Assembly (NCBI RefSeq): GCF_041248615.1
Contig: NZ_CP158426.1
From: Escherichia coli
Lineage (GTDB): Bacteria > Pseudomonadota > Gammaproteobacteria > Enterobacterales > Enterobacteriaceae
Length of the DNA: 64,000 bases
Reading direction: 5' to 3' (one strand)
Notes under the pieces: model-generated
Database searches by the model: none
The model's input: only the letters and a program-made list of their open reading frames with translations
Told to the model about the DNA's origin: nothing
In this document: positions 33,889 to 64,000 of the stretch, piece after piece
Position numbering within the stretch: the first letter of the stretch is position 1
How the letters are laid out: every line of letters begins with the position of its first letter
Made by a program: the position numbers and the translations under genes

Positions 33889-34653
33889 ATGAATAACTCC
33901 CCCCGCTACCCGCAGCGCGTTCGCAATGATCTGCGCTTCCGTGAACTGACTGTGCTACGCGTTGAGCGTATTAGCGCCGGTTTTCAGCGCATTGTCCTTG
34001 GCGGCGAGGCGCTGGACGGTTTTACATCGCGCGGCTTTGACGATCACAGCAAACTCTTCTTTCCTCAATCTGATGCTCACTTTGTGCCGCCAACGGTAAC
34101 GGAAGAGGGTATCGTCTGGCCGGAAGGACCACGCCCACCGTCGCGTGACTATACGCCGCTGTATGACGAACTACGCCATGAACTGGCGATTGATTTCTTT
34201 ATTCACGAAGGTGGCGTCGCCAGCAGCTGGGCAATGCAGGCGCAACCGGGCGATAAACTTACGGTGGCAGGTCCGCGCGGTTCGCTGGTGGTGCCAGAGG
34301 ATTACGCGTATCAGCTGTATGTCTGCGATGAATCCGGAATGCCCGCACTGCGCCGCCGCCTGGAAACGTTGAGCAAACTTGCCGTTAAACCGCAAGTTAG
34401 CGCACTGGTTAGCGTGCGGGATCACGCCTGCCAGGATTATCTCGCGCACCTTGATGGTTTTAATATCGAATGGCTGGCGCATGATGAGCAGGCGGTAGAT
34501 GCGCGTCTGGCGCAGATGCAAATCCCTGCCGATGATTACTTCATCTGGATAACCGGCGAAGGCAAAGTCGTTAAGAATTTAAGCCGCCGCTTTGAAGCGG
34601 AACAGTATGATCCACAGCGGGTACGTGCAGCGGCTTACTGGCACGCAAAGTAA
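33889..34653 (+). CDS. yqjH: NADPH-dependent ferric-siderophore reductase (siderophore-interacting protein family)
   Basis: 254 aa, MNNSPRYPQRVRNDLRFRELTVLRVERISAGFQRIVLGG. Confidence 0.88.
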   Translation: MNNSPRYPQRVRNDLRFRELTVLRVERISAGFQRIVLGGEALDGFTSRGFDDHSKLFFPQSDAHFVPPTVTEEGIVWPEGPRPPSRDYTPLYDELRHELAIDFFIHEGGVASSWAMQAQPGDKLTVAGPRGSLVVPEDYAYQLYVCDESGMPALRRRLETLSKLAVKPQVSALVSVRDHACQDYLAHLDGFNIEWLAHDEQAVDARLAQMQIPADDYFIWITGEGKVVKNLSRRFEAEQYDPQRVRAAAYWHAK

Positions 34654-34659
34654 CTGATA

Positions 34660-34702
34660 TATAAAAAGAAAAAGGCTGATGATTTCTCGTCAGCCTTTGC
34701 TA
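34660..34702 (-). terminator. rho-independent terminator downstream of the tRNA fragment
   Basis: Minus-strand hairpin AAAGGCTGACGAGAAATCATCAGCCTTT followed by a T-run, directly 3' of the tRNA 3' end. Confidence 0.55.
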
Positions 34703-34706
34703 TATC

Positions 34707-34753
34707 TGGTGGCCCCTGCTGGACTTGAACCAGCGACCAAGCGATTATGAGTC
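34707..34753 (-). tRNA. ileX: 3'-terminal 47-nt fragment of a CAU-anticodon tRNA (ileX-type tRNA-Ile2); not a complete gene; candidate island att site
   Basis: Revcomp reads GACTCATAATCGCTTGGTCGCTGGTTCAAGTCCAGCAGGGGCCACCA (anticodon loop with CAU, T-arm, acceptor 3' strand, CCA); upstream sequence cannot pair as a 5' acceptor strand, so the gene is truncated at the anticodon stem. Confidence 0.7.
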
Positions 34754-34879
34754 ATGAGGCAAGTTCGTTCTATATTGTTTTTGTTTGTTCGTGATTGCTT
34801 TATTAGTTGTTTGTAATCAATAAATTATGTGATTTTCCCTGTCTCCGCTTGGTTCCGTTTTTTCTTCATTGTACGATCG

Positions 34880-34903
34880 TTACCTGACCCATTACCTGAC
34901 CCA
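34880..34903 (+). repeat. perfect tandem 12-bp direct repeat TTACCTGACCCA x2 (candidate integrase arm-type sites)
   Basis: Two adjacent identical copies about 50 bp upstream of the integrase start, inside the att-proximal region. Confidence 0.4.
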
Positions 34904-34949
34904 AAATCACGAGTTATTCTGATTGTTACTGGTTTAGAAAAGAGGTTCT

Positions 34950-36266
34950 ATGGCCGTCAATCTTACTGAAACAGCCATCCGAGCATTGAAAGCAAAAAAG
35001 ACATCGTTCTATGTCTGGAGCAACAGCTCTCAACGTGGCACTGGACGACTTGGTGTCAAAGTTCAGCCTTCTGGCAGCAAGATTTTCTATTTCCGCTATT
35101 ACGTGGAAAAAGGGAAAAAAGAAAGATTCATTCAATTGGGTATATGGCCTGAGATGAAACTGGCCACAGCGAATGAACTGGCAAAAAAGTATGGTGCCTG
35201 GCTCATTGAAGGAAAGGCTCCCCAGGCAGAACTGGAACGACAACAGTTTGCAGAACAGCAGCGGATACAACTCCATCAATCACAGGGCTCATTTGAAGCA
35301 TTGATTCATGGTTATGTTAACAAAATGAAAATTGATAATAAGAGGACATGGCAGGATGTTCTGAAACGCCTTGAAAATGAATGCTATACAGTGATCCCCC
35401 GTGAAACTAAAGCTAAAGATGTGACTTCCGGACAGATTAAACATATCCTGGCCGGGATCATTCAGCGCGGTGCTGTGGTTCACTCTAACCGGATCCGTTC
35501 TTACCTGATGGCTGCATTTAACTATGGACTGAAAGCAGATAACGATCCGATGAACACAAGTGTAGGGATTACTTTTGGGCTGGAGGCAAATCCGGTGTCA
35601 GTGATACCGAAACAGTCATCTGCTGAAAAAGTCGGTGATACCTGGCTGACACTTGAAGAGTTGCGTTTTCTAATGGAACATTTTGCTGAAGCAACCAACG
35701 TTGGATTATTGATGCAACATTTGATCCGATTCTGTATCTATACCGGAGGGCAACGTCCTTTCGAAATGATCGCCAGTCAGTGGTGTGATGTTGATTTTCA
35801 ACAAAAAACGCTGCTGGTGACTGCTGATGTCTCTAAAAATAAACGAGAGCATTTGATACCGTTGACTGAATCAGCATTACAGGAATTATCCTGTGTGCAG
35901 GAGTTAACAAAAGAAAAATCCAGCCCTTACATTTTTCCACTTTCGACTAATGGTAAGCGTCCGGTTCGTACGGACAGTCTGGCTCGCGCTATCATGTATT
36001 TCCGGGCTTTTAATCCTGACTTTAAAATTTTTACAGCACGTGACTTACGTCGGACCTGTAAAACGTTAATGGGAGAAGCTGGGATCAGTAAGGAAATCCG
36101 CGATCGTATTCAAAATCATGCGTTGAACGATGTCAGTTCAAAACATTATGATCGATACGATTATTTGCCAGAAAAACGCAGAGCACTTGAGATCTGGGAG
36201 GACCGGGTTAATAACTATCAACAGCAAACAGGCAATAATGTTGTCAATCTGTTTGGCAGAAGGTGA
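34950..36266 (+). CDS. tyrosine site-specific integrase (P4-type)
   Basis: 438 aa; N-terminal arm-binding-like region (KVQPSGSKIFYFRYYVEKGKK); C-terminal catalytic-region motifs (HDLRRT..., ...HYDRYDY); good ribosome-binding site AAAAGAGG. Confidence 0.88.
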   Translation: MAVNLTETAIRALKAKKTSFYVWSNSSQRGTGRLGVKVQPSGSKIFYFRYYVEKGKKERFIQLGIWPEMKLATANELAKKYGAWLIEGKAPQAELERQQFAEQQRIQLHQSQGSFEALIHGYVNKMKIDNKRTWQDVLKRLENECYTVIPRETKAKDVTSGQIKHILAGIIQRGAVVHSNRIRSYLMAAFNYGLKADNDPMNTSVGITFGLEANPVSVIPKQSSAEKVGDTWLTLEELRFLMEHFAEATNVGLLMQHLIRFCIYTGGQRPFEMIASQWCDVDFQQKTLLVTADVSKNKREHLIPLTESALQELSCVQELTKEKSSPYIFPLSTNGKRPVRTDSLARAIMYFRAFNPDFKIFTARDLRRTCKTLMGEAGISKEIRDRIQNHALNDVSSKHYDRYDYLPEKRRALEIWEDRVNNYQQQTGNNVVNLFGRR

Positions 36267-39458: not shown

Positions 39459-39686
39459 ATGTGGAAGCCGTTAAGAGATGAGAACCGTTTATCAATTTTG
39501 AAGATCTATGGATACACCTGTGACAGACTGGTACGAGAAAAGGAACGCCAGAAAATTACGTCTATTTCTCGTTCACAAGCCTGGAAACTGGAACGTGAAG
39601 GAAAATTCCCGCCACGTAAAACTATTGGAAAGAAATCCTGTGGGTGGTTATTAAGTGATCTATTGTGGTGGATTAGTCAGTATTAA
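39459..39686 (+). CDS. AlpA-family phage/island transcriptional regulator
   Basis: 75 aa; pattern RLV...ISRSQAW.LEREGKFP...GKKSCGW fits the AlpA (prophage CP4-57 regulatory) fold; ribosome-binding site TAAGGAGAG. Confidence 0.75.
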   Translation: MWKPLRDENRLSILKIYGYTCDRLVREKERQKITSISRSQAWKLEREGKFPPRKTIGKKSCGWLLSDLLWWISQY

Positions 39687-44485: not shown

Positions 44486-45496
44486 ATGTCACTCAAGGCT
44501 ATCGCCGCCGAACTCGGGATCTCTGTCACCACAGTCAGCCGGGCGCTTGGCGGATTTTCGGACGTTTCCGCTTCGACCCGTGCACGTGTAGAAGCGGAAG
44601 CTCGGCGTCGTGGTTATCGCCCGAATACCCTGGCAAGACGTCTCAAAACCGGTAAAACCGATGCGGTCGGCCTGGTCTTCCCTGAACATGCTGTACTGTT
44701 CAGCAGTAGTGTGTTTGTGGATATGGTCAGTTGTATCAGCCGGGAACTGGCCCGCCATGATATTGACTTACTGCTGATAGCCGATGATGAACGGGCTGAC
44801 AGCCACAGCTATATGCGTCTGGTCGAAAGCCGCCGGGTTGATGCCCTTATCGTGGCGCACACGATGGATAATGACCCGCGTCTTACACACCTGCAGGAGG
44901 CCGGTATTCCGTTTCTGGCACTCGGTCAGGTGCCGTCCGGTCTTCCCTGTGCCTGGTTTGACTTTGATAACCATGCAGGAACCTGGCAGGCCACACAGCA
45001 CCTGATTGCCCTGGGCCATCAGCGAATTGCCCTGCTGAGTGAGGACAACTCCCGTGCCTATGTCACTGCACGACGTCAGGGATGGCGCGATGCCCTGAGT
45101 GAACATGGTCTGCCTGAGACCTGGCTACGCCGGGTCTCTCCCACCCGACGCTCAGGTTTCCAGGCAGTGACTGAGTTAATGTCACTTCCGCTTCCCCCGA
45201 CGGCCATTATTACCGACAGTGACCTGATCGGTGATGGCGCGGCCATGTCGCTGCAGTTATCCGGTCATCTGTCCGGAGAGGATGCCGTCTCTCTTGTGGT
45301 TTATGATGGTCTGCCGCAGGACAGTATTATTGAACAGGATGTGGCTGCAGTTCTTCAGTCAACACGACATCGCGTCGGTCGTCAGATTGCCGACATGATA
45401 CGCCAGCTGGTCACGAATGTTTCACCTGAAATGCTACAAGTACTCTGGCAGCCGGAATTTCATCCTGGCAAGACAACGCTTGCTCCCTCCGCCTGA
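44486..45496 (+). CDS. rafR: LacI-family repressor of the raffinose operon (RafR-like)
   Basis: 336 aa with N-terminal HTH MSLKAIAAELGISVTTVSRAL; directly upstream of alpha-galactosidase, permease and invertase genes. Confidence 0.75.
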   Translation: MSLKAIAAELGISVTTVSRALGGFSDVSASTRARVEAEARRRGYRPNTLARRLKTGKTDAVGLVFPEHAVLFSSSVFVDMVSCISRELARHDIDLLLIADDERADSHSYMRLVESRRVDALIVAHTMDNDPRLTHLQEAGIPFLALGQVPSGLPCAWFDFDNHAGTWQATQHLIALGHQRIALLSEDNSRAYVTARRQGWRDALSEHGLPETWLRRVSPTRRSGFQAVTELMSLPLPPTAIITDSDLIGDGAAMSLQLSGHLSGEDAVSLVVYDGLPQDSIIEQDVAAVLQSTRHRVGRQIADMIRQLVTNVSPEMLQVLWQPEFHPGKTTLAPSA

Positions 45497-45515
45497 TTTT
45501 TAATCCCGCTCACAA

Positions 45516-45554
45516 ATTCGAATCGTTTCGGTTGCTATCCGAAACGATTCGGAT
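45516..45554. promoter_or_regulatory. near-perfect 16-bp inverted repeat (candidate RafR operator pair) upstream of rafA
   Basis: ATTCGAATCGTTTCGG - 7 bp - CCGAAACGATTCGGAT, located 35-75 bp before the rafA start. Confidence 0.5.
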
Positions 45555-45589
45555 CAACAGTAAGGCATACCCGAAAACGGAGATGTCTT

Positions 45590-47716
45590 ATGGAACCGAT
45601 GTACCGCAGGCTGACCAGTCCCCACTCAGACCTGATTATTAAAACCCACCCGTATGCAGAGATTGTCTGGTGGGGATCCACCCTGAAACACTTTTCACCG
45701 GATGACTGTATCAGCCTGGAAAGGCCGGTTGCGAATGGTCGTCTGGATACCGACACCCCACTGACGCTGATGGCCGAAAACGGCGCGGGACTTTTTGGCT
45801 CGCCGGGGCTGGAGGGACACCGCAACGGGCTGGATGCGTCCCCTGTGTTCCGTACCATCAGCGTGGTACAGGCCGGAGAATCACTCACCCTGACCAGTGA
45901 GGATGCAGTGGCGGGTCTGCGCATGGTCAGTGAACTGGTGCTGACATCGTCCGGTGTGCTGAAGATGCGTCATGCCCTGACGAACCTCCGTGAAGGGGAC
46001 TGGCAGGTGAACCGCTTCGCCATCACGCTCCCTGTGGCTGAAAGGGCAGAGGAAGTCATGGCCTTCCACGGACGCTGGACTCGTGAGTTTCAGCCGCACA
46101 GGGTCCGTCTCACACATGACGGTTTTGTGCTGGAGAACCGCCGGGGCCGCACGTCCCATGAGCATTTTCCGGCACTGATTGCCGGTGCCCCCGGTTTCTC
46201 AGAACAGCAGGGCGAGGTGTGGGCCGTACATCTGGGCTGGAGTGGCAACCATCGCATGAAATGTGAGGTCAAAACTGACGGACGGCGTTACCTCCAGGCG
46301 GAAGCACTGTGGATGCCCGGAGAAAAAGCCCTGAAGAAGGATGAGACCGTGTACACGCCGTGGCTGTACGCCAGCTATTCCCCGGAGGGGCTCAATGGTA
46401 TGAGTCAGCAGTACCACCGTTTTCTGCGCGATGAAATCATCCGTTTTCCTGAGCAGAAACCCCGTCCGGTGCACCTCAATACCTGGGAAGGTATTTATTT
46501 TGACCACGACCCGAACTACATCATGCAGATGGCCGGACGTGCGGCAGCGCTTGGCGTTGAACGTTTCATTATCGACGACGGCTGGTTTAAGGGACGCAAT
46601 GATGACCATGCGGCTCTGGGCGACTGGTATCTGGATGAACAGAAGTATCCGGACGGACTGATGCCGGTGATTAACCATGTGAAATCACTCGGCATGGAGT
46701 TCGGTATCTGGGTGGAACCGGAAATGATTAACCCGGACTCTGACCTCTTTCGCCGCCATCCTGACTGGGTACTGTCAATGCCGGGGTACACACAACCAAC
46801 CGGGAGACATCAGTATGTTCTCAACCTGAACATTCCTGAGGCCTTTGCTTACATTTATGAACGCTGTTTATGGCTGCTGGGCGAACACCCAGTTGACTAT
46901 GTGAAATGGGACATGAACCGCGAGCTGGTCCAGGCCGGGCATGAAGGTCGGGCGGCGGCGGACGCGCAGACCCGTCAGTTTTACCGGCTGCTGGATCTCC
47001 TGCGCGAACGTTTTCCCCGTGTTGAGTTTGAGTCCTGCGCTTCCGGCGGTGGACGTATCGACTTTGAGGTTCTGACCCGCACGCACCGCTTCTGGGCTTC
47101 TGACAACAATGACGCCCTGGAGCGCTGCACCATACAGCGTGGCATGAGTTACTTTTTCCCGCCGGAGGTTATGGGGGCACACATCGGTCATCATCGCTGC
47201 CATGCCACCTTCCGGCAGCACAGCATTGCCTTTCGCGGTCTGACGGCCCTGTTCGGTCATATGGGACTGGAGCTGGATCCGGTAACGGCCGGAGAAGAGG
47301 AATCCGCCGGTTACCGCCGCTATGCCTCGCTCTACAAAGAATGGCGGCAGCTTATCCACACGGGCACCCTATGGCGGGTGGATATGCCGGATGCGGCGAC
47401 ACAGGTGCAGGGGGTGGTCAGCCCGGATCAGTCGCAGGCGCTCTTCCTGGTGAGCCAGCTTGCCATGCCGGATCACACCCTGCCGGGTGCTCTACGTTTT
47501 CCGGGGCTGGCACCACAGGCCCGTTACCGGCTTCGTGTTGTTGACCATCCGGATATTCAGCTGGTCGGTGAAGGCGGGCATACCATGCGCAGGCTGCCCG
47601 GCTGGATGAACCAGACCTCCGACATCAGTGGGGAATGGCTGGCGCAGGCCGGTATTCAGCTTCCCGTACTGGATCCGGAAAGCGCCATGCTGATTGCCCT
47701 TGAACGTTTGGCATAA
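45590..47716 (+). CDS. rafA: alpha-galactosidase (GH36), RafA-like
   Basis: 708 aa; size and context match raffinose-plasmid RafA. Confidence 0.85.
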   Translation: MEPMYRRLTSPHSDLIIKTHPYAEIVWWGSTLKHFSPDDCISLERPVANGRLDTDTPLTLMAENGAGLFGSPGLEGHRNGLDASPVFRTISVVQAGESLTLTSEDAVAGLRMVSELVLTSSGVLKMRHALTNLREGDWQVNRFAITLPVAERAEEVMAFHGRWTREFQPHRVRLTHDGFVLENRRGRTSHEHFPALIAGAPGFSEQQGEVWAVHLGWSGNHRMKCEVKTDGRRYLQAEALWMPGEKALKKDETVYTPWLYASYSPEGLNGMSQQYHRFLRDEIIRFPEQKPRPVHLNTWEGIYFDHDPNYIMQMAGRAAALGVERFIIDDGWFKGRNDDHAALGDWYLDEQKYPDGLMPVINHVKSLGMEFGIWVEPEMINPDSDLFRRHPDWVLSMPGYTQPTGRHQYVLNLNIPEAFAYIYERCLWLLGEHPVDYVKWDMNRELVQAGHEGRAAADAQTRQFYRLLDLLRERFPRVEFESCASGGGRIDFEVLTRTHRFWASDNNDALERCTIQRGMSYFFPPEVMGAHIGHHRCHATFRQHSIAFRGLTALFGHMGLELDPVTAGEEESAGYRRYASLYKEWRQLIHTGTLWRVDMPDAATQVQGVVSPDQSQALFLVSQLAMPDHTLPGALRFPGLAPQARYRLRVVDHPDIQLVGEGGHTMRRLPGWMNQTSDISGEWLAQAGIQLPVLDPESAMLIALERLA

Positions 47717-47770
47717 AAGGACCGGAGCCGGTCACGGCTCCCTGCACTCAGTCCCGTGAGGATAACAATA

Positions 47771-49048
47771 ATGAATACTGTCAGTACTCATAAAAACCCC
47801 GATTTCTGGATATTTGGTCTGTTCTTTTTTCTCTACTTTTTCATCATGGCAACCTGTTTCCCGTTTCTGCCCGTCTGGCTGTCAGACATTGTGGGGCTGA
47901 GTAAAACGGATACCGGGATTGTTTTTTCATGCCTCTCCCTGTTTGCCATCAGCTTCCAGCCGCTGCTGGGGGTCATCTCAGACCGTCTTGGCCTGAAAAA
48001 ACACCTGATGTGGATCATCAGCCTGCTGCTGGTCCTGTTTGCACCGTTCTTTCTGTACGTTTTTGCGCCGCTGCTGCGGTTCAACATCTGGGCCGGAGCA
48101 CTGAGCGGCGGGATTTTTATCGGCTTCGTTTTTTCTGCGGGAGCCGGTGCCATCGAAGCCTATATTGAACGTGTCAGCCGCAGCAGCGGATTTGAATACG
48201 GTAAGGCCCGGATGTTCGGCTGTCTGGGCTGGGCGCTGTGTGCCACCACGGCAGGGCTGCTTTTCAACGTGGATCCGTCCCTGGTATTCTGGATGGGGTC
48301 CGGCTGCGCATTGCTGCTGGTCCTTCTGGTGGCGCTGGCGCGTCCCGGAACCAGTCAGACAGCGATGGTCATGAATGCGCTGGGTGCCAACTCGCCCGTG
48401 ATTTCCGCCGGAATGGTGTTCAGTCTGTTTCGTATGCGTCAGATGTGGATGTTCGTGCTTTACATGATTGGGGTGGCCTGCGTCTATGACGTGTTTGACC
48501 AGCAGTTTGCCACGTTCTTCCGTGCATTTTTTGACACGCCGCAGGCGGGGATCCGGGCATTTGGTTTTGCCACCACGGCTGGCGAGATTTGCAATGCCAT
48601 CATCATGTTCTGCTCCCCCTGGATAATCAACCGCATTGGTGCCAAAAACACACTGCTTGTCGCGGGTCTGATTATGACCATCCGCATCACAGGGTCGGCC
48701 TTTGCCACCACGGCTACTGAAGTGGTGATCCTGAAAATGCTGCATGCCCTTGAAGTCCCATTCCTGCTGGTTGGTGCGTTCAAGTATATCACCGGCGTGT
48801 TTGATACCCGGCTGTCGGCCACCATTTATCTGATTGGCTTTCAGTTCTCCAAACAACTGGCGGCGATATTCCTCTCAACCTTTGCAGGTCACCTGTATGA
48901 CCGCATGGGGTTCCAGAACACCTATCTGGTTCTGGGCGGTATTGTCCTTGCGGTCACCGTGTTATCGGCTTTCACCCTGAGCAGTACCCGTAAAACGGCT
49001 GCCCCGTCAGCAGAAACCGCTACAGCACAGACGGAGGTTCGCTTATGA
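47771..49048 (+). CDS. rafB: raffinose permease (LacY-family oligosaccharide:H+ symporter), RafB-like
   Basis: Start at MNTVSTHKNPDFWIFGLFFFLYFF with GAGGA ribosome-binding site; LacY-like throughout. Confidence 0.85.
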   Translation: MNTVSTHKNPDFWIFGLFFFLYFFIMATCFPFLPVWLSDIVGLSKTDTGIVFSCLSLFAISFQPLLGVISDRLGLKKHLMWIISLLLVLFAPFFLYVFAPLLRFNIWAGALSGGIFIGFVFSAGAGAIEAYIERVSRSSGFEYGKARMFGCLGWALCATTAGLLFNVDPSLVFWMGSGCALLLVLLVALARPGTSQTAMVMNALGANSPVISAGMVFSLFRMRQMWMFVLYMIGVACVYDVFDQQFATFFRAFFDTPQAGIRAFGFATTAGEICNAIIMFCSPWIINRIGAKNTLLVAGLIMTIRITGSAFATTATEVVILKMLHALEVPFLLVGAFKYITGVFDTRLSATIYLIGFQFSKQLAAIFLSTFAGHLYDRMGFQNTYLVLGGIVLAVTVLSAFTLSSTRKTAAPSAETATAQTEVRL

Positions 49049-50475
49049 AACAGCGTCTTGCCTCTGCACAGGTTGCACTTGATACACTCCGCGCCCGTCG
49101 TGGTGATACCTGGTACCCGGTTTTTCATCTGGCTCCACCTGCCGGATGGATGAATGATCCGAACGGGCTTATTTATTTCAGCGGTCGCTATCACGCATTC
49201 TTTCAGCACCATCCGGCAAGTGAACATCAGGGGCCGATGCACTGGGGACATGCCACCAGTCCGGACATGCTGCACTGGCAGCATGAGCCGGTTGCGCTGG
49301 CACCCGGTGATGAATATGACCGGGATGGCTGTTTTTCCGGCAGCGCAGTGGACGACAACGGCGTGCTGTCGCTTATCTACACCGGTCATCTCTGTCTGGA
49401 GGATCGGGGGGATGACAGCATCATCCGCGAAGTCCAGTGTCTGGCAACCAGCCGTGACGGCATTCACTTTGAGAAACAGGGCTGCGTGCTGACGCCACCG
49501 GAAGGCATCATGCATTTCCGTGACCCGAAGGTCTGGCGGGAAGGGGGATACTGGTGGATGGTTATCGGCGCGCGGGATACCTCTGACACCGGTCAGGTGC
49601 TGCTGTATCGCGGCACATCCCTGCGGGACTGGCGCCAGGAACGGGTTCTAGCGCAGTCGGCAGCCGGAGAAAGCTATATGTGGGAATGTCCGGACTTTTT
49701 CCGCTGTGGCGACCATCACTGGCTGATGTTCTCCCCGCAGGGGATGACGCCCGGCGGATACCGGTTCCGCAACCGCTTTCAGAGCGGAGTTTTACCGGGT
49801 CACTGGCAGCCGGGGGCCGCCTTTGCCCTGAGCGGGGCATTTGAAGAACTGGATCACGGTCATGATTTTTATGCCCCGCAGTCCCTGGTCGCGGAGGACG
49901 GACGGCGCATCATCATGGCCTGGATGAATATGTGGGACTCCCCGATGCCTACAAAGCGTGAGGCCTGGGCCGGATGTCTGACCCTGCCGAGGGAACTTTT
50001 TGAACGCCATGGTCGTCTGTGTCAGCGTCCGGTTCGCGAAGCCGAATCCCTTCGCGGGACGTGCCAGCCGTTACACCCTGTAAGGCTCAGTGGCACGCAG
50101 TTGCTGGCTGAGGACGCACAGGCCGTGGAACTGGTGCTGACGTGGCATACCCTCGACAGTCAGGCAGAGCATTACGGCATCCACCTGGGAGACGGGCTCC
50201 GGCTGTATGTGGATAACCAGGCAGGACGGCTGGTGCTTTGGCGTCACTACCCGGATGAGGGGCTGGACGGTTACCGCAGTATCGCGCTGCCTGGCGCAGA
50301 ATATCTGACGCTACGGGTTTTCCTGGACCGTTCATCGGTGGAAGTGTTCGTTAACGATGGCGATGCCACCCTGTCCAGCCGTATTTACCCGCAGCCCGGA
50401 ACCCGCCGGTTGTCGCTATATGCAGCTCACGGCGAGGCTGTGCTGACGGACGGCTCACTGTGGACGCTGGCCTGA
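49045..50475 (+). CDS. rafD: GH32 invertase / sucrose hydrolase, RafD-like
   Basis: 476 aa; GH32 signature WMNDPNG near the N-terminus; start overlaps rafB stop by 4 bp. Confidence 0.85.
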   Translation: MKQRLASAQVALDTLRARRGDTWYPVFHLAPPAGWMNDPNGLIYFSGRYHAFFQHHPASEHQGPMHWGHATSPDMLHWQHEPVALAPGDEYDRDGCFSGSAVDDNGVLSLIYTGHLCLEDRGDDSIIREVQCLATSRDGIHFEKQGCVLTPPEGIMHFRDPKVWREGGYWWMVIGARDTSDTGQVLLYRGTSLRDWRQERVLAQSAAGESYMWECPDFFRCGDHHWLMFSPQGMTPGGYRFRNRFQSGVLPGHWQPGAAFALSGAFEELDHGHDFYAPQSLVAEDGRRIIMAWMNMWDSPMPTKREAWAGCLTLPRELFERHGRLCQRPVREAESLRGTCQPLHPVRLSGTQLLAEDAQAVELVLTWHTLDSQAEHYGIHLGDGLRLYVDNQAGRLVLWRHYPDEGLDGYRSIALPGAEYLTLRVFLDRSSVEVFVNDGDATLSSRIYPQPGTRRLSLYAAHGEAVLTDGSLWTLA

Positions 50476-50538
50476 AATAATTCCACTGCCGTCGGTGACG
50501 GCAGTACTTTCGGTTCACCCGTAATGAAGGAAAGCACA

Positions 50539-51054
50539 ATGGGATTACTGGGCAGGATTAAACAACTGATAAGTGAAAATGAGAAACCGGCGGAAGTCAC
50601 CCGCGTGATGGCACCGCTGTCCGGTGAAATTGTCCCTCTGGACACGGTTCCGGATGCTGTGTTTGCCGGGAAAATAGTGGGGGATGGTATTGCTATCCGT
50701 CCTTCCGGCGGCGATACCTTGATGGCTCCTGTCAGCGGCACTATCGGTAAAATACTGGAGACAAACCACGCGTTTTCCATCCGCACCGACAGTGGCACTG
50801 AACTGTTCGTGCACTTCGGTATTAACACAGTTGACCTCAGGGGAGAGGGTTTCCGGCGTATTGCCCAGGAAGGCCAGCTGATCAGCACCGGTGACCCCGT
50901 CATCGGGTTTGACCTTGCGTTACTTCAGCAGAAAGCACAGTCCACGCTGACACCGGTGATTGTGGCGGACTCTGACCGTGTCCAGGAGATAACCCTGTTC
51001 TCCGGCCCGGTCATCGCCGGAGAAACACCGGTTTTTGATATCAGCAGCCAGTAA
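50539..51054 (+). CDS. PTS EIIA(Glc)-like protein (Crr paralogue)
   Basis: 171 aa from MGLLGRIK (ribosome-binding site AAGGA 7 nt upstream); contains the EIIA-Glc core …KIVGDGIAIRPSG…GKILETNHAFSI…LFVHFGINTVDLRGEGF… including the two active-site His. Confidence 0.75.
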   Translation: MGLLGRIKQLISENEKPAEVTRVMAPLSGEIVPLDTVPDAVFAGKIVGDGIAIRPSGGDTLMAPVSGTIGKILETNHAFSIRTDSGTELFVHFGINTVDLRGEGFRRIAQEGQLISTGDPVIGFDLALLQQKAQSTLTPVIVADSDRVQEITLFSGPVIAGETPVFDISSQ

Positions 51055-51324
51055 GCGCCATGAGTGACAATATCGCCAGCGGGCAGCTGGTATCAGGGAA
51101 AGCCGCACATCTGGCCTGGTGCGGGCTGGTAGCCCTGCATCTGGCCCGCCGGGATGGCCGGATTGCGTCAAAAATCCAGGAAAACCTGTTTCTAAACCGC
51201 TGGCGGAGCACAGCACTGAAACAGCACCGTTTTCCCCGCACATATCAGAGCCCTGCAGAGTGAAAGCGGGGCGAAAGATATCCGCAGCAGGCTGGAGTAT
51301 CTGTGGCAGGCCTGCTCTGGTGAT

Positions 51325-51636
51325 GTGTCGGTACAGACTGACCTGTTCCGCCTGACATTCGCCCTGGAAACCATCAGGGAGCAGGGCTGGTGCTGGCGGA
51401 TACTGAGCGACCGGAAATGGGAGGGGCGTAATGTCGTGGTTCCGAACGGGGATGCCGGCAGCTTTTATCTTTCCCGCTCACGTCTTGAGGCGGCATTTGA
51501 TTATCAGGGGAGGTTGCTGCATCCCCTGACCGGCGATGTGTCTGCCCTCGCTGCCCTGCTCCGGAATGCGGGTTGGTATCCAATTCCAGCCGGAACCACG
51601 GATATGGCGATGTTTGAGCTGTCTGTCATCCGCTGA
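51325..51636 (+). CDS. hypothetical small protein (uncertain; possibly part of a decayed gene)
   Basis: 103-aa ORF with GTG start in a GC-rich stretch where all three plus frames carry 60-100-codon ORFs (51060-51263, 51119-51355, 51325-51636). Confidence 0.25.
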   Translation: MSVQTDLFRLTFALETIREQGWCWRILSDRKWEGRNVVVPNGDAGSFYLSRSRLEAAFDYQGRLLHPLTGDVSALAALLRNAGWYPIPAGTTDMAMFELSVIR

Positions 51637-51665
51637 ATATGACTGATGAAAATCATGGAGTATGA

Positions 51666-52592
51666 ATGAGTACAGTAAAAGTATGGGGTCTCGGTGATGC
51701 CGTGGTGGATTTATTACCGGAGAAGCCGGGCACGCTGTTGCAGTGCCCTGGTGGTGCGCCTGCCAATGTTGCCGTGGGCGTGGCCCGACTGGGGGGCCTG
51801 AGCGGGTTTGTCGGGTGTGTGGGGGATGACCCTTTCGGGCGTTTTATGCGCAAAACCCTGGCTGATGAGGGTGTGGACACGGCGTATATGCATACCGACC
51901 CTCTGTACCGGACTTCCACAGTGGTGGTGTCGCTGGTGCCGGGTGGTGAACGAACCTTCACATTTATGGTGCGCCCTTCGGCAGACCTTTTCCTTACCCC
52001 TGATGATTTACCGCCCTTTCGTGCCGGTGAATGGCTGCATACCTGCTCCAATGCCCTGAGTGCAGAGCCCTGCCGCAGCGCCACGTTTCAGGCCATGGAG
52101 AACATCCGGCAGGCTGGCGGCAGGGTCAGCTTTGACCCCAACATCCGGACTGACCTGTGGCAGAGCACATCGCAACTGCGTGAGTGTCTGCACCGGGCGC
52201 TCATGCTGGCGGATGTGGCAAAGGTATCGGAAGAGGAACTGTTCTTTATCAGCGGTGAACAGGATGTCCGGAAGGGAACCGATGTTCTGGCATCACATTA
52301 TCCCCTGGCACTGCTGCTGGTAACCCAAGGAAAGGATGGCGTGATGGCTCGCTGGCAGGGAAAAAACCTGTACTTCCCGGCAACACCGGTGGTGAGTGTG
52401 GACACGACCGGTGCCGGTGACGCCTTCGTGGCAGGTCTGCTGGCAGCGCTGGCGGCAGAGGGGATGCCCTCCGGTGAGCAGGCACTCGCATCCGTCATCG
52501 AACAGGCCCAGCGCTGTGGTGCGCTTGCCACGACAGCAAAAGGTGCCATGACAGCGTTACCCCGTCGCCAGGATTTACTGAAACACCCCTGA
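51666..52592 (+). CDS. scrK: fructokinase (ribokinase/pfkB family; ScrK/CscK-like)
   Basis: 308 aa; VLGDAVVDLL N-terminus and DTTGAGDAF ATP-binding motif. Confidence 0.85.
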   Translation: MSTVKVWGLGDAVVDLLPEKPGTLLQCPGGAPANVAVGVARLGGLSGFVGCVGDDPFGRFMRKTLADEGVDTAYMHTDPLYRTSTVVVSLVPGGERTFTFMVRPSADLFLTPDDLPPFRAGEWLHTCSNALSAEPCRSATFQAMENIRQAGGRVSFDPNIRTDLWQSTSQLRECLHRALMLADVAKVSEEELFFISGEQDVRKGTDVLASHYPLALLLVTQGKDGVMARWQGKNLYFPATPVVSVDTTGAGDAFVAGLLAALAAEGMPSGEQALASVIEQAQRCGALATTAKGAMTALPRRQDLLKHP

Positions 52593-52640
52593 CCGTTTCC
52601 TGCCCGTAACCGTTGTGCACGTCATTTTTGTTGCGGGTGA

Positions 52641-54188
<1,548 letters not shown>

Positions 54189-55271: not shown

Positions 55272-55598
55272 ATGACTAAAAATACTCGTTTTTCCCCCGA
55301 AGTCCGTCAGAGGGCGATTCGTATGGTTCTGGAAAGTCAGGGCGAATATGACTCACAGTGGGCGGCAATTTGTTCCATTGCCCCAAAGATTGGCTGTACA
55401 CCGGAGACTCTGCGTGTCTGGGTGCGCCAGCATGAGCGGGATACCGGAGGCGGTGATGGCGGGCTCACCACCGCTGAACGTCAGCGTCTGAAAGAGCTGG
55501 AACGTGAAAATCGTGAACTGCGCCGCAGTAACGATATCCTTCGCCAGGCTTCCGCTTATTTTGCGAAGGTGGAGTTCGACCGCCTCTGGAAAAAGTGA
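55272..55598 (+). CDS. IS3-family transposase OrfA (IS629/IS1203-like)
   Basis: 108 aa, [51 protein letters not shown]; HTH plus leucine zipper. Confidence 0.85.
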
Positions 55599-56012
55599 TG
55601 CCACTGCTGGATAAGCTGCGTAAGCTGTACGGGGTCGGACCGGTATGCAGTGAACTACATATTGCCCCGTCAACGTATTACCACTGTCAGCAACAGCGAC
55701 ATCATCCTGATAAACGCAGTGCCCGTGCGCAGCGCGATGACTGGCTGAAGAAAGAGATACTGCGCGTATACGATGGGAATCATCAGGTATACGGTGTGCG
55801 TAAAGTCTGGCGTCAGTTGTTACGGGAAGGAATCAGGGTAGCCAGATGTACAGTGGCGCGCCTCATGGCGGTTATGGGACTTGCCGGTGTTCTCCGGGGT
55901 AAAAAGGTCCGCACTACCGTCAGCCGGAAAGCCGTTGCCGCAGGCGACCGCGTAAACCGTCAGTTTGTGGCAGAACGTCCTGACCAGTTGTGGGTGGCTG
56001 ATTTTACTTACG
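55595..56012 (+). CDS. IS3-family transposase OrfB, 5' exon (interrupted by group II intron)
   Basis: Frame runs to …[10 protein letters not shown] then meets GTGTG at 56013; the ORF-track continuation [15 protein letters not shown] is intron read-through. Confidence 0.65.
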
Positions 56013-58761
<2,749 letters not shown>

Positions 58762-59190: not shown

Positions 59191-60744
59191 TTACGCCATA
59201 AACCAGTAATAAAAGAGACCGACTTTCAGGCCAAGGATCACAATGTAGGCACAGCAGTATTTCATGGTGCCAGACATGATCTGATTGGCCTGACCGTCCA
59301 TTTTGGTGGCAGAAACCGCGATGGCGATGCTTTGCGGCGAAATCATTTTGCCCCCCGTAGCGCCAGAGGTATTGGCCGCCGCCAGCCAGTTGGGATCGAT
59401 ATGTAACTTGCTGGCAGCTATGGTTTGCAGCTTGCCAAACAGAATGTTCGAGTTGGTATCGCTGCCGGTAACGAACGTGCCCAGCGCGCCAATCACCGGG
59501 GCGAGGAAGACGTACGAGCTGCCGGTCAGATCGACAATCGACTGCGCCAGTGTGGAGATAATCCCGCTGAGATCCATCACCGTGGCCAGCGCGACGATCG
59601 CCATAATTGCCACGATAGAGTTTTTAAGCTGGAAAATCGTTTTGATAAATACTTCCAGCATCCCGCGTGCGGACGCTCCCTGAATAAAACCGCCGATAAT
59701 GGTCGCAAAGATAATCAGCATCCCTGGTGTGGTCACCCATTCAACTTTCAGTGCCATCGTTTTGCCGTCAGCCAACGTGAAATGCAGCACCGAAGCCAGT
59801 TGGGATGCCGCGCCTTTTATTGTCGGAAACAGCGGCGAACACAGCAGGATAAACACAAAAATAAACAGATAGATAGAGCCCACGCGGAACAACACTTTTG
59901 CCGAGCGCGGCGTGGTTTCGCGGGTATGGCTGACCTCAATGCGCCACTCTGGATCGGTTTTCCCTTTGCGCAGGCGACTGACCATCGCCACGGCAAACAG
60001 GCTGACCAGGCTACCGGCAAAAGCGGGTAATTCCGCGCCAAGATGGATGGCGACAAAATATTGCGGAATCAGCGTGGAAATGCCGCAAATCAACGTGATC
60101 AGAAATACGCCGCGAATGGCTTTCAGGCCACCGCCAATAATGCAGACAATCACAAACGGCAGCAGGATATTAAACAGCGCGAGCTGCAAAATAATGGTTC
60201 CGCCTAAGGTATAAACCGGCAGATTAACCTGCTCTGCCAGAATAGAAACCGGGATCCCAACCGCGCCAAATGCGGTCGGAACGGTATTTGCTACGAGGGA
60301 AGCAATCGCCGCCTTCAACGGGTTGAATCCCAGCGCAATGAGAATACCGATCGGAATAGCGACCGCCGTGCCATAGCCCGCAGCGGCTTCAAGAAATCCA
60401 CCAAAACACCATGAAATCAGCAGCACCTGAATACGCTTATCTTCGCTAATGCTGGCGAGAATATCGCGCAGAATATCCAGCGCTTTGGTCGCCTGCATGA
60501 CGTTATAACTGAAGATAGCGCCGAGGATAACAATTACGATCGGCCATAGTCCCTTCAGTGCACCATAGCCTATCGCGGCTTTCAAATTTTGTACGGGCAT
60601 TTCCCAGAATATTGCCGATAGTGCAGCGGTGAATACCAAAGAGATCAGTACGGAATAATGGATGGGCATTTTTAATTTCAGTATTAAAAATACCATCAGC
60701 AGCAAAGGAGAGAGTGCCAGAGCAAACATTAAATATTCGTGCAT
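59191..60744 (-). CDS. lactate permease (LctP family)
   Basis: 517 aa, highly hydrophobic multi-span protein with LctP-type segments; divergent from the Dld-like gene across a 430-bp AT-rich promoter region. Confidence 0.8.
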   Translation of the reverse strand: MHEYLMFALALSPLLLMVFLILKLKMPIHYSVLISLVFTAALSAIFWEMPVQNLKAAIGYGALKGLWPIVIVILGAIFSYNVMQATKALDILRDILASISEDKRIQVLLISWCFGGFLEAAAGYGTAVAIPIGILIALGFNPLKAAIASLVANTVPTAFGAVGIPVSILAEQVNLPVYTLGGTIILQLALFNILLPFVIVCIIGGGLKAIRGVFLITLICGISTLIPQYFVAIHLGAELPAFAGSLVSLFAVAMVSRLRKGKTDPEWRIEVSHTRETTPRSAKVLFRVGSIYLFIFVFILLCSPLFPTIKGAASQLASVLHFTLADGKTMALKVEWVTTPGMLIIFATIIGGFIQGASARGMLEVFIKTIFQLKNSIVAIMAIVALATVMDLSGIISTLAQSIVDLTGSSYVFLAPVIGALGTFVTGSDTNSNILFGKLQTIAASKLHIDPNWLAAANTSGATGGKMISPQSIAIAVSATKMDGQANQIMSGTMKYCCAYIVILGLKVGLFYYWFMA

Positions 60745-61174
60745 TACAATTCCCGATTTACTTTTTTAGACTGAGCTATATTTATGGGGAAGGAAGCTAC
60801 CTGAATAATAAAATAAAAAATGCTAACTGAATCGCTTCAGTGAAATAAAGTTATAAAGGTTAATAATTGTATAAATAATGTTATTTTTTTATTAAATATG
60901 AATAACCACTAAATATTACAACACCCATTAGAGTTAATCATTAATAGGTATGGGATGATCTTTGCAATAAATAAGTGTTTTGGCATCCCCTCAAAGGGCG
61001 AGGTATGAATTATATGGCGGTGGTAATTTCATTAAAAAATGTGAGCGGTACCGAAAGAAATAAAATGGGGTATTGCATGTGGATATTGATTGAGGGAATA
61101 TTCTGCTTTGTCATACAAATGAACTTATAGCCATTTTCACTGGCCCTGATATAAGGAGCGGAGAGCCGCCCTCC

Positions 61175-62872
61175 ATGAAACATACTGATAATAAGACCTT
61201 TTTGACGACTCTTACCCAATTGGTTGGCCCTGCTCATATCCTCACCGAACCGTCAAAAACTGCGTGTTACCGTAAGGGATTCCGCTCGGGTCAGGGTGAT
61301 GCTCTGGCGGTGGTTATCCCCGGCTCTTTGCTTGAACTCTGGAAAGTCCTCAGCGCCTGCGTTGAGGCTGATAAAATAATCCTGATGCAGGCGTCGAACA
61401 CAGGCCTGACCGAGGGTTCGACGCCAAATGGTAATGACTACGACCGCGAGATCGTCATTATCAGCACGCTGCGGCTGGACAGTCTGCATGTGCTGGATGA
61501 GGGCAAGCAGGTGCTGGCTTATCCGGGCACCACGCTGTACTCGCTGGAAAGGGCGCTGAAGCCGTTTGGCCGTGAGCCGCATTCGGTGATCGGCTCTTCG
61601 TGCATCGGCGCGTCGGTTATCGGCGGTATCTGTAATAACTCGGGCGGTTCTCTGGTCCAGCGAGGCCCGGCTTACACCGAGATGTCGCTGTTTGCCCGCA
61701 TTGATGAACAGGGACGCTTGCAGCTGGTCAATCACCTTGGCATTGAGCTAGGTCAGACGCCAGAGCAAATCCTTGCCCGGCTGGATAACAATGTGATTGA
61801 AGCCGCGCTCGTCAACCATGACGGACGTCACGCGCACGATCACGACTATGTTAGCCGCGTGCGGGACATCAATGCCGACACGCCAGCACGTTACAACGCT
61901 GACCCGGATCGCCTGTTTGAATCCTCTGGCTGCGCGGGCAAGTTAGCGGTGTTTGCCGTACGTCTGGATACCTTTGAAGCCGAGAAGAACCAGCAGGTCT
62001 TTTATATCGGTACCAATCAGACTGATGTCCTGACTGAGATTCGCCGCCACATCCTGGCGAATTTTACAAACCTGCCGGTTGCTGGGGAGTATATGCACCG
62101 CGATATCTATGATATTGCAGAGAAATACAGCAAAGATACCTTCCTGATGATCGACAAACTTGGCACGGACAAAATGCCGTTCTTCTTCAACCTGAAGGGG
62201 CGTACCGAGGCCATACTTGAGAAGGTGAAGATCTTTCGCCCGCACTTTACTGACCGCGCGATGCAGGCTTTTAGCCATCTGTTCCCGAGCCATCTCCCGG
62301 CGCGGATGAAGACCTGGCGCGATAACTATGAACACCATCTGATGTTGAAAATGTCCGGCGAGGGTGTGGCCGAAGCCCAGGCATGGTTAACGGACTATTT
62401 TAAATCGGCCGAGGGCGCGTTCTTTACCTGTACCGCGGAAGAGGGCAGTAAGGCGTTTCTGCATCGTTTTGCCGCCGCGGGTGCTGCCATTCGTTATCAG
62501 GCCGTTCATTCTGACGAGGTTGAGGATATTCTCGCGCTGGATATTGCATTACGCCGCAATGATACCGAATGGTATGAGTATTTACCTGCGGAAATTGACA
62601 GTCAGTTGGTGCATAAACTCTATTACGGCCATTTTATGTGCCATGTATTCCATCAGGATTATATCGTTAAAAAAGGCGTAGATGCCCACGCGTTAAAAGA
62701 ACAGATGCTGGAATTACTGCGCCAACGCGGAGCGCAATATCCGGCGGAACACAATGTCGGCCATCTGTATAAAGCGCCGGAAAATTTGGCACGTTTTTAT
62801 CAGGAAAATGATCCGACCAACACTATGAATCCAGGTATTGGTAAAACCAGCAAACATAAAAACTGGGCATGA
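61175..62872 (+). CDS. dld: FAD-dependent D-lactate dehydrogenase (Dld family)
   Basis: 565 aa; colinear with E. coli Dld (…YRKGFRSGQGDALAVV…PGTTLYSLE…VIGSSCIGASVIGGICNNSGGSLVQRGPAYTEMSLFARI…) but in a non-K-12 context. Confidence 0.85.
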   Translation: MKHTDNKTFLTTLTQLVGPAHILTEPSKTACYRKGFRSGQGDALAVVIPGSLLELWKVLSACVEADKIILMQASNTGLTEGSTPNGNDYDREIVIISTLRLDSLHVLDEGKQVLAYPGTTLYSLERALKPFGREPHSVIGSSCIGASVIGGICNNSGGSLVQRGPAYTEMSLFARIDEQGRLQLVNHLGIELGQTPEQILARLDNNVIEAALVNHDGRHAHDHDYVSRVRDINADTPARYNADPDRLFESSGCAGKLAVFAVRLDTFEAEKNQQVFYIGTNQTDVLTEIRRHILANFTNLPVAGEYMHRDIYDIAEKYSKDTFLMIDKLGTDKMPFFFNLKGRTEAILEKVKIFRPHFTDRAMQAFSHLFPSHLPARMKTWRDNYEHHLMLKMSGEGVAEAQAWLTDYFKSAEGAFFTCTAEEGSKAFLHRFAAAGAAIRYQAVHSDEVEDILALDIALRRNDTEWYEYLPAEIDSQLVHKLYYGHFMCHVFHQDYIVKKGVDAHALKEQMLELLRQRGAQYPAEHNVGHLYKAPENLARFYQENDPTNTMNPGIGKTSKHKNWA

Positions 62873-62946
62873 AATACGAATGAACATTTGTTTGATATCG
62901 CGATATCAAGCGCAATAAACAGAAATGAAGCAATGGAGTAGTTATT

Positions 62947-63666
62947 GTGAATGTAAATTTCTTTGTCACCTGTATTGGTGACGCACTGAAATCACGGATG
63001 GCACGAGACTCCGTATTGCTGCTGGAAAAACTGGGTTGTCGCGTTAATTTCCCCGAGAAGCAAGGGTGTTGCGGTCAGCCAGCCATCAACAGCGGTTACA
63101 TCAAAGAGGCGATCCCCGGGATGAAAAACCTGATCGCCGCGCTGGAAGACAACGACGATCCGATTATCTCCCCGGCGGGCTCCTGCACCTACGCGGTTAA
63201 AAGCTACCCGACGTATCTGGCCGATGAACCGGAATGGGCGCTGCGTGCTGAGAAAGTTTCCGCGCGTATGCAGGATCTCACCTCCTTTATCGTCAACAAA
63301 CTGGGTGTGGTGGACGTTGGTGCCAGCCTGCAGGGCCGCGCTGTGTATCATCCTTCCTGTAGCCTGACCCGCAAACTGGGAGTGAAGGAAGAGCCGCTTA
63401 CGCTGCTGAAAAACGTGCGCGGACTGGAGCTGTTGACGTTTGCCGATCAGGATACCTGTTGCGGCTTTGGCGGGACGTTCTCGGTCAAGATGGCCGAGAT
63501 ATCCGGTGAGATGGTGAAAGAGAAAGTATTACATCTGATGGACGCAAAGCCGGAATTTTTGATTGGCGCAGACGTTAGCTGCCTGCTGAACATTGGCGGT
63601 CGACTGCAACGGGAAGGCCAGCCGGTCAAAGTGATGCATATTGCTGAAGTGCTGATGAGCCGCTGA
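62947..63666 (+). CDS. lactate utilisation protein A (LutA/YkgE-like Fe-S oxidoreductase, CCG domains)
   Basis: 239 aa; two cysteine-rich CCG motifs (GCCGQPA…, TCCGFGG…). Confidence 0.85.
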   Translation: MNVNFFVTCIGDALKSRMARDSVLLLEKLGCRVNFPEKQGCCGQPAINSGYIKEAIPGMKNLIAALEDNDDPIISPAGSCTYAVKSYPTYLADEPEWALRAEKVSARMQDLTSFIVNKLGVVDVGASLQGRAVYHPSCSLTRKLGVKEEPLTLLKNVRGLELLTFADQDTCCGFGGTFSVKMAEISGEMVKEKVLHLMDAKPEFLIGADVSCLLNIGGRLQREGQPVKVMHIAEVLMSR

Positions 63667-63676
63667 GGGGAAAGAG

Positions 63677-64000
63677 ATGTCGATAAAAACCAGCGATGTA
63701 GAATTTAAACTGCGTATTCGTCAGCAGATAGAAGATCCGATTATGCGCAAAGCCGTGGCTAATGCGCAGGAGCGTATCGGCGCGAATCGGCAAAAAATGG
63801 TCGATGAGTTAGGCCACTGGGAAGAATGGCGCGATCGTGCCAGCCAGATCCGCGATCACGTTCTGAGCAACCTCGACGCTTACCTGTACCAACTCTCCGA
63901 GAAAGTGACGGAAAACGGCGGACACGTCTATTTCGCCAAAACCAAAGAAGATGCCACTCGCTACATTTTGCAGGTCGCGCAGAGTAAAAATGCGCAGAAG
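63677..64000 (+). CDS. partial CDS (3' end outside window): lactate utilisation protein B (LutB/YkgF-like)
   Basis: Starts 11 bp after the LutA-like stop with AGGGGAAAGAG ribosome-binding site; N-terminus MSIKTSDVEFKLRIRQQIEDPIMRKAVANAQERIG typical of YkgF/LutB. Confidence 0.8.
   Translation, partial: MSIKTSDVEFKLRIRQQIEDPIMRKAVANAQERIGANRQKMVDELGHWEEWRDRASQIRDHVLSNLDAYLYQLSEKVTENGGHVYFAKTKEDATRYILQVAQSKNAQK

Follow-up and report, generated by a model that had tools for sequence, protein, structure and literature searches.

The junction analysed here lies in a 64,000-nucleotide stretch of an Escherichia coli chromosome (contig NZ_CP158426.1; the whole stretch is referred to below as the window), in which the DNA of a genomic island abuts a displaced piece of the tRNA gene ileX. 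Very probably the island, an integrative element of 48.4 kb, was inserted into ileX when its own heterobivalent tyrosine integrase catalysed site-specific recombination there. It is an ordinary tRNA-integrated genomic island of a known kind, ileX being a published integration site. The integrase gene stands beside the leftover piece of the tRNA gene, which is the normal layout for the integrase clade to which it belongs. The window is 100% identical to positions 736001-800000 of the E. coli NRZ14408 chromosome (NZ_LT599825.1), and the far end of the island was read from that record; the nfeF-ileX-mug region of K-12 (XL1-Blue) provided the empty-site reference and was aligned three-way with both island junctions. 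The features of the junction are as follows, in window coordinates.

33889-34653, plus strand: nfeF (yqjH), a core-genome gene next to the site of insertion, annotated NfeF in NZ_LT599825.1 and found at the same place in K-12.
34663-34698, minus strand: native ileX terminator, a hairpin and T run left with the displaced fragment (K-12 collinearity and folding).
34707-34753, minus strand: displaced host 3' 47 nt of ileX, the integrase-side copy of the attachment (att) core (alignment; no tRNA call).
34745-34751, minus strand: anticodon loop, CTCATAA on the tRNA strand, the predicted 7-nt strand-exchange (overlap) region (from the repeat mismatches and the secondary site at locus L020).
34754-34949, plus strand: integrase-proximal arm of attP; island DNA begins at 34754, and the arm aligns with the equivalent stretch in 29 loci of other species.
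34880-34903, plus strand: tandem 12-bp repeats, TTACCTGACCCA x2, putative arm-type integrase-binding sites.
34950-36266, plus strand: tyrosine integrase of 438 aa, heterobivalent type with arm-binding and catalytic domains (Pfam PF13356, PF22022 and PF00589).

The stretch from 34707 to 34753 is, on the minus strand, exactly the 3' 47 nt of ileX, which encodes tRNA-Ile2(CAU), and comprises positions 30-76 of the gene from the anticodon arm to CCA; its plus-strand letters, TGGTGGCCCCTGCTGGACTTGAACCAGCGACCAAGCGATTATGAGTC, are the reverse complement of ileX 30-76. In the alignment the window follows K-12 along the native terminator and on across these 47 nt, and departs from it directly after GAGTC at 34753. 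The K-12-type terminator hairpin is kept 3' of the CCA end with one substitution, folding at -16.9 kcal/mol (z = -5.5) compared with -22.7 kcal/mol in K-12. An earlier interpretation of the window, made from its letters without database searches (hereafter the sequence-only reading), had described just such a 3' 47-nt remnant of an ileX-type tRNA followed by its native terminator, together with a tandem 12-bp repeat, an integrase reading away from the junction and, in K-12, an intact ileX next to yqjH. All of this is borne out, respectively by the K-12 alignment and folding, by the two repeat units at 34880-34903, by the open reading frame at 34950-36266 (plus strand) and by the nfeF-ileX-mug empty site. 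A scan of the junction for consensus promoters and terminators returned nothing and overlooked the native hairpin that folding reveals, because of the single mismatch in its stem.

ARAGORN gave no tRNA call over the whole window, and Rfam detected no tRNA in the window at the gathering threshold and none at E≤10 across 34600-34950. The sequence-only reading had regarded a complete tRNA predicted across the junction by a covariance model as evidence against its own proposal, and no such tRNA is found there. The top permissive Rfam hit, Plastid-ycf2 5'UTR at 34709-34760 on the plus strand (E = 0.014), was rejected as a feature: it reflects tRNA homology seen from the other strand, because that plastid leader is antisense to trnI-CAU.

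A 76-nt tRNA is present at positions 819124-819199 of NZ_LT599825.1 (minus strand; window-equivalent 83124-83199), directly beside mug, where K-12 has the 5' side of ileX, and the island, 48,417 bp in length, ends at position 819170. ARAGORN assigns this tRNA a CAU anticodon, and Rfam scores it at 72 bits against a gathering score of 29. Its 5' 29 nt and the sequence upstream are identical to K-12, while its 3' 47 nt (positions 2124-2170 of the far-end locus, L002) form a direct repeat with the window fragment that is identical at 43 of 47 positions. The four differences between this 3' half and the native fragment all fall in the T arm, where both members of one stem pair (C-G to U-A) and two loop bases differ; it follows that the 3' half of the intact tRNA comes from the element and that the window fragment is the 3' half native to the host. 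The chimeric tRNA is followed by an element-supplied terminator, a hairpin and T run with a folding energy of -17.4 kcal/mol.

These results settle the two outcomes that the sequence-only reading had left standing, in that the intact copy it envisaged outside the window at the far island end exists, identified by both ARAGORN and Rfam, whereas loss of this tRNA copy is contradicted by a gene reconstituted as a host/element chimera. It was also right to place an island junction in ileX, although its size of at least 29 kb gives way to the actual figure of 48,417 bp. A second att core copy, also sought, is present at the far end: the region of the island contains just two copies of the 20-nt core CGACCAAGCGATTATGAGTC, one per end, with none expected. 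Since there are two core copies and one integrase, this is one island, and a tandem or composite arrangement was rejected.

The window taken by itself, with just the 3' 47 nt and no detectable tRNA, would also fit a truncation of ileX by deletion or illegitimate recombination, the tRNA gene being lost and the integrase merely nearby. We regard that account as scarcely credible, given that a complete tRNA(CAU) stands 48.4 kb away beside mug, at the K-12 place of the ileX 5' side, and that two 47-nt copies bound the island as direct repeats. Two further matches to the 47-nt sequence can be mentioned here. The native 3' half has one megablast place in NZ_LT599825.1, compared with two (ileX and ileY) in K-12 strains; judging from this count NRZ14408 may be without ileY, which would make the chimeric ileX its sole tRNA-Ile2 gene. 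A plasmid match to the 47-mer (pEC16-AU-EG1) was discarded as a degenerate tRNA-like pseudogene among insertion sequence (IS) elements, unrelated to the junction.

The four mismatches between the repeats confine the crossover to 34734-34753, the 20 nt between tRNA position 30 and the first mismatch, around the anticodon loop. At one related locus (L020, Tenebrionibacter intestinalis, 2750-3000) this integrase arm adjoins non-tRNA DNA with solely ATTATGAGTC in common with ileX, in what is apparently a secondary-site insertion. Because nothing beyond ATTATGAGTC is shared, the overlap narrows to about 10 nt and likely coincides with the loop CTCATAA, which we infer to be the 7-nt strand-exchange region.

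The anatomy of the two ends suggests how integration would have proceeded. The attP of the circular form is expected to carry a tRNA copy running from the anticodon loop to CCA and then the element's own terminator, with the integrase gene on the other side of the core and divergent from it, and with two 12-bp arm-type sites on each arm. On paper such an attP would measure ~280 bp and comprise, in order, two sites, the element terminator, the 47-nt tRNA-like core, the integrase arm, two sites and the integrase start. Strand exchange in the anticodon loop would join the host promoter and the ileX 5' 29 nt to the 3' half and terminator of the element and so produce a complete, chimeric tRNA beside mug; it would also leave the host 3' 47 nt and terminator beside the integrase arm, which is the junction in the window.

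The exact 12-mer TTACCTGACCCA has only four copies in ~86 kb, namely two tandem pairs, one at each island end, all in the same orientation. The integrase-side pair starts 126 bp inside the junction and 46 bp upstream of the integrase start, and at the far end 57 bp separate the pair (L002 2043-2066) from the intact tRNA's 3' end. An 11-mer, TTACCTGACCC, is found exactly at -71 and -59 from the integrase start in 24 of 24 loci of other genera whose integrases are 84-98% identical, with a shift to -70/-58 or -67/-55 in two of these, and the spacer sequence around it varies among the 24 loci. In a subclade of 57% identity another motif (TTACGTCACC.. / CTACATCACCC) takes the place of the 11-mer. 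Between the tandem pair and the integrase start, at -36 or -33, 23 of the 24 close relatives have a third 11-mer copy in inverted orientation (GGGTCAGGTAA), which is exact in 22 and has one mismatch in L015.

The most plausible reading of the 12-mers is as putative arm-type sites for integrase binding on either arm of attP, because of the pairs on both arms, their position and conservation across loci, the change of motif with the integrase clade and the arm-binding domain of the integrase. It is unlikely, in our judgement, that they are instead operator or promoter elements of another regulator, or a conserved part of the integrase leader. A place 46 bp upstream of the integrase start is indeed that of a promoter or operator, arm-site binding is a prediction from sequence, and the far-end pair could serve a separate role. 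However, an identical pair flanks the att core on both sides and occurs nowhere else in the 86 kb, the motif changes along with the integrase clade, and the integrase bears an Arm-DNA-bind_3 domain. The two roles are in any case compatible, as in KplE1 intS, whose arm sites are reported to overlap the integrase promoter (PMC2951348).

The integrase contains Arm-DNA-bind_3 (PF13356), Phage_int_M (PF22022) and Phage_integrase (PF00589) domains and matches the phrog_1 integrase, its best phage relative being 39% identical. A 12-sequence alignment shows R269, R367, H390 and Y400/Y405 unchanged throughout the clade and in IntA; together they make up an intact catalytic set. The sequence-only reading had called the enzyme P4-type. 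The domain architecture and an end-to-end alignment with IntA (23% identity, E = 9e-23) support that label in a broad sense, whereas the protein scores 72.3 bits against NCBIfam PRK09692 (IntA/intP4), whose cut-off is 434, and the att site is another one. On alignment and domain content the integrase is best classed as a remote member of the broad superfamily of arm-domain integrases, its att sublocation being unlike that of P4. IntF was rejected as a close homologue, sharing 25% identity over part of the catalytic domain.

A scan of relatives, restricted to one genome per species, yielded 77 loci from many genera, with integrases 36-98% identical to that of the window. In 66 of them the integrase lies ~160-280 bp from a 3' tRNA fragment and is divergent to it. 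The fragment is the 47-nt ileX 3' end, 159-258 bp upstream and divergent, at 34 loci, where its sequence tracks the host species; the hosts include Escherichia, Yersinia, Erwinia, Pantoea, Kluyvera, Citrobacter, Photorhabdus, Vibrio, Aliivibrio, Ferrimonas and others. A further 32 loci have a 3' fragment of another tRNA that starts at the anticodon loop (judging by their sequences, Arg-UCU, Arg-CCU, Asn-GUU, Gly-CCC and others), and 10 were left unassigned by the strict pattern. An intact tRNA directly upstream is seen at a single related locus (L082, Pseudomonas mandelii), where a Gly-CCC tRNA at 2794-2867 is upstream of and divergent from the integrase. The identity block spans tRNA positions 30-76, with the same boundary in the 34 ileX loci and an analogous boundary at the other tRNAs. 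Two contigs binned as Flavobacterium or Flavobacteriales in metagenomes (L010 and L041) carry an enterobacterial- or Aliivibrio-type ileX fragment with the integrase, and are probably misbinned.

An integrase beside the leftover tRNA piece is thus the rule among these loci, and the sequence-only reading, which considered the layout atypical, is not supported on this point, given the 66 loci and CP4-6 of K-12, which is arranged alike. The explanation is one of geometry: after integration, any gene that flanks the tRNA-like core of attP on its 5' side comes to stand beside the displaced host fragment, and here that gene is the integrase. The TIGER paper (PMC7192596) makes no statement on the position of the integrase relative to the tRNA.

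We find it very improbable that the integrase once stood beside the intact tRNA, as in P4-type islands, and was moved to the far end by a later inversion or rearrangement, for example between IS copies. The island does contain IS3, IS256, IS5 and group II intron sequences that could mediate such an event, but the distance of ~197 bp between fragment and integrase and their orientation are conserved in dozens of species, and across the loci of relatives homology continues unbroken from the core into the integrase arm. Moreover, arm-type sites occur at both ends in one orientation, as in an unrearranged attL/attR pair, and distant members of the clade at other tRNAs show the same layout.

A wider proposition, which we put forward only tentatively and hold to be possible rather than probable, is that this integrase and its relatives constitute a coherent, experimentally uncharacterised clade in which the integrase would always be encoded on the fragment-side attP arm, the target would switch among anticodon loops (Ile2-CAU, Arg-UCU, Arg-CCU, Asn-GUU and Gly-CCC) and the 11-12-bp arm sites would change with the subclade. 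If this is true, a complete attP/attB pair is definable from sequence alone and could be used as a new site-specific integration tool.

Among 5426 complete E. coli genomes the integrase adjoins nfeF in 455, the 301-bp left junction is present in 331 and the right junction with the chimeric tRNA in 345, so that ~6-8% carry the island; nearly all the remaining genomes have an uninterrupted nfeF-ileX-mug site. In many other genera integrases of 84-87% identity are likewise found at ileX. From this sporadic presence in E. coli and the related integrases at ileX elsewhere it follows that the segment was horizontally acquired and is not vertically conserved, vertical conservation being the other finding that would have spoken against the sequence-only reading. 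The GC content drops from ~52% to 37-40% just inside the junction (36-42 kb). Cargo stretches have a GC content of 53-58% compared with 37-40% in the island backbone: a raffinose/sucrose-type cluster at 44486-54188 encodes a regulator, alpha-galactosidase, MFS transporter, GH32 hydrolase, kinase and porin, and a lactate module at 59191-64000 encodes a permease, D-lactate dehydrogenase and lutABC. Other cargo includes a type I restriction-modification system and Ag43, and a RadC/antirestriction/DUF932/CbtA-YeeU module adjoins the intact tRNA. Two more features belong to the part of the island within the window.

34754-64000, no strand: in-window part of the 48,417-bp island, which runs on to window-equivalent 83170 (annotation of NZ_LT599825.1).
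39459-39686, plus strand: AlpA-family small DNA-binding protein, candidate excision/directionality factor (Pfam Phage_AlpA, E = 3e-14; the role is suggested by the family).

We also observed an IS3-family transposase pseudogene (55553-55669 and 56669-58282) with an ALIL frameshift pseudoknot, which is split by a group II intron; the intron consists of an ltrA reverse transcriptase/maturase and Rfam Intron_gpII at 58196-58282.

Several observations weigh against integration by the island's own integrase at the att sites described above. Binding of the integrase to the 12-mers is a prediction from position and conservation. The third, inverted arm-type site is missing from the window (34904-34949), as it is from E. 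albertii; with this site lost the island may be impaired, and there could be consequences for excision or for regulation of the integrase. The arm upstream of the integrase (34754-34949), which must hold the integrase promoter too, yielded no consensus sigma-70 promoter. A synthetic attP composed of the far-end arm, core and integrase arm gave no contiguous excised or tandem junction when compared with complete E. coli genomes and PLSDB plasmids, although finished assemblies rarely show one. Finally, the island contains several IS elements and pseudogenes. Two PLSDB matches (L084, CP101363.1, and L085, NZ_MG591698.1) were considered as plasmid-borne attP and rejected, both apparently being pieces of chromosome with aer-nfeR-nfeF-int.

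Both the limits of the island (48,417 bp, from ileX to ileX') and the anatomy of its att sites have been established, which has little importance beyond correct annotation. In this island family tRNA finders will return 'no tRNA' at the end with the integrase, and rules that expect an integrase beside a tRNA mis-orient these islands, because the intact gene is at the integrase-distal end. The conserved arm-site motif and the 20-nt crossover window provide a ready design for testing the integrase.

With respect to known systems, ileX is on record as a target of integrative elements and pathogenicity-island modules in E. coli, and the elements of Shiga-toxin-producing E. coli resemble the island in target gene and species (PMC7067040, PMC5539235 and PMC7545054). 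The cargo of the LAA island is unlike that described here, which consists of raffinose-type sugar genes, lactate utilisation, type I restriction-modification and Ag43.

The P4-type islands (CP4-57 with IntA at ssrA, and GI-pheV with intP4) are similar to the ileX island in having a three-domain integrase, a tRNA or tmRNA target and direct-repeat bounds, and an AlpA-family gene is found in both CP4-57 and the ileX island. In P4-type islands the repeats are only 19-23 bp and lie at the 3' end, as does the short att site of those at pheV (PMC11537424), whereas the repeats of the ileX island extend over 47 nt from the anticodon loop. Likewise, the P4-type integrase is immediately beside the intact tRNA or tmRNA (in K-12 CP4-57, intA begins ~200 bp after the prophage start at the 3' end of ssrA), in contrast to the ileX island, where it is beside the fragment.

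CP4-6 at thrW of K-12 is identical in layout, with an intact tRNA at one end and, at the other, an integrase divergent from a 3' tRNA fragment; intF is ~100 bp from a ~48-nt thrW 3' fragment that begins at the anticodon arm. In both islands the intact tRNA is beside a module of toxin-antitoxin, RadC, DUF987, antirestriction, DUF932 and GTPase genes, and YagK/YfjJ-type genes are near the integrase. They differ in target (thrW rather than ileX), in cargo and in the integrase, IntF representing another lineage with 25% identity over part of the catalytic domain. Since the layout is the same although IntF is only distantly related, it recurs in separate integrase lineages. A ~21-bp repeat, TAAC(A/T)GCTGGTGTAAGTAAAT, is present near both ends of CP4-6 (L003 2008-2028 and 36061-36081), and these repeats may be arm-type sites analogous to the 12-mers.

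An anticodon-loop class of tRNA integration sites was reportedly recognised by Williams in 2002. The ileX island shares with this class an identity block that runs from the anticodon arm to the 3' end, a crossover within the anticodon arm and an element that restores the 3' half of the gene; we found no difference from it, and the sequence of both junctions would place the island among its members.

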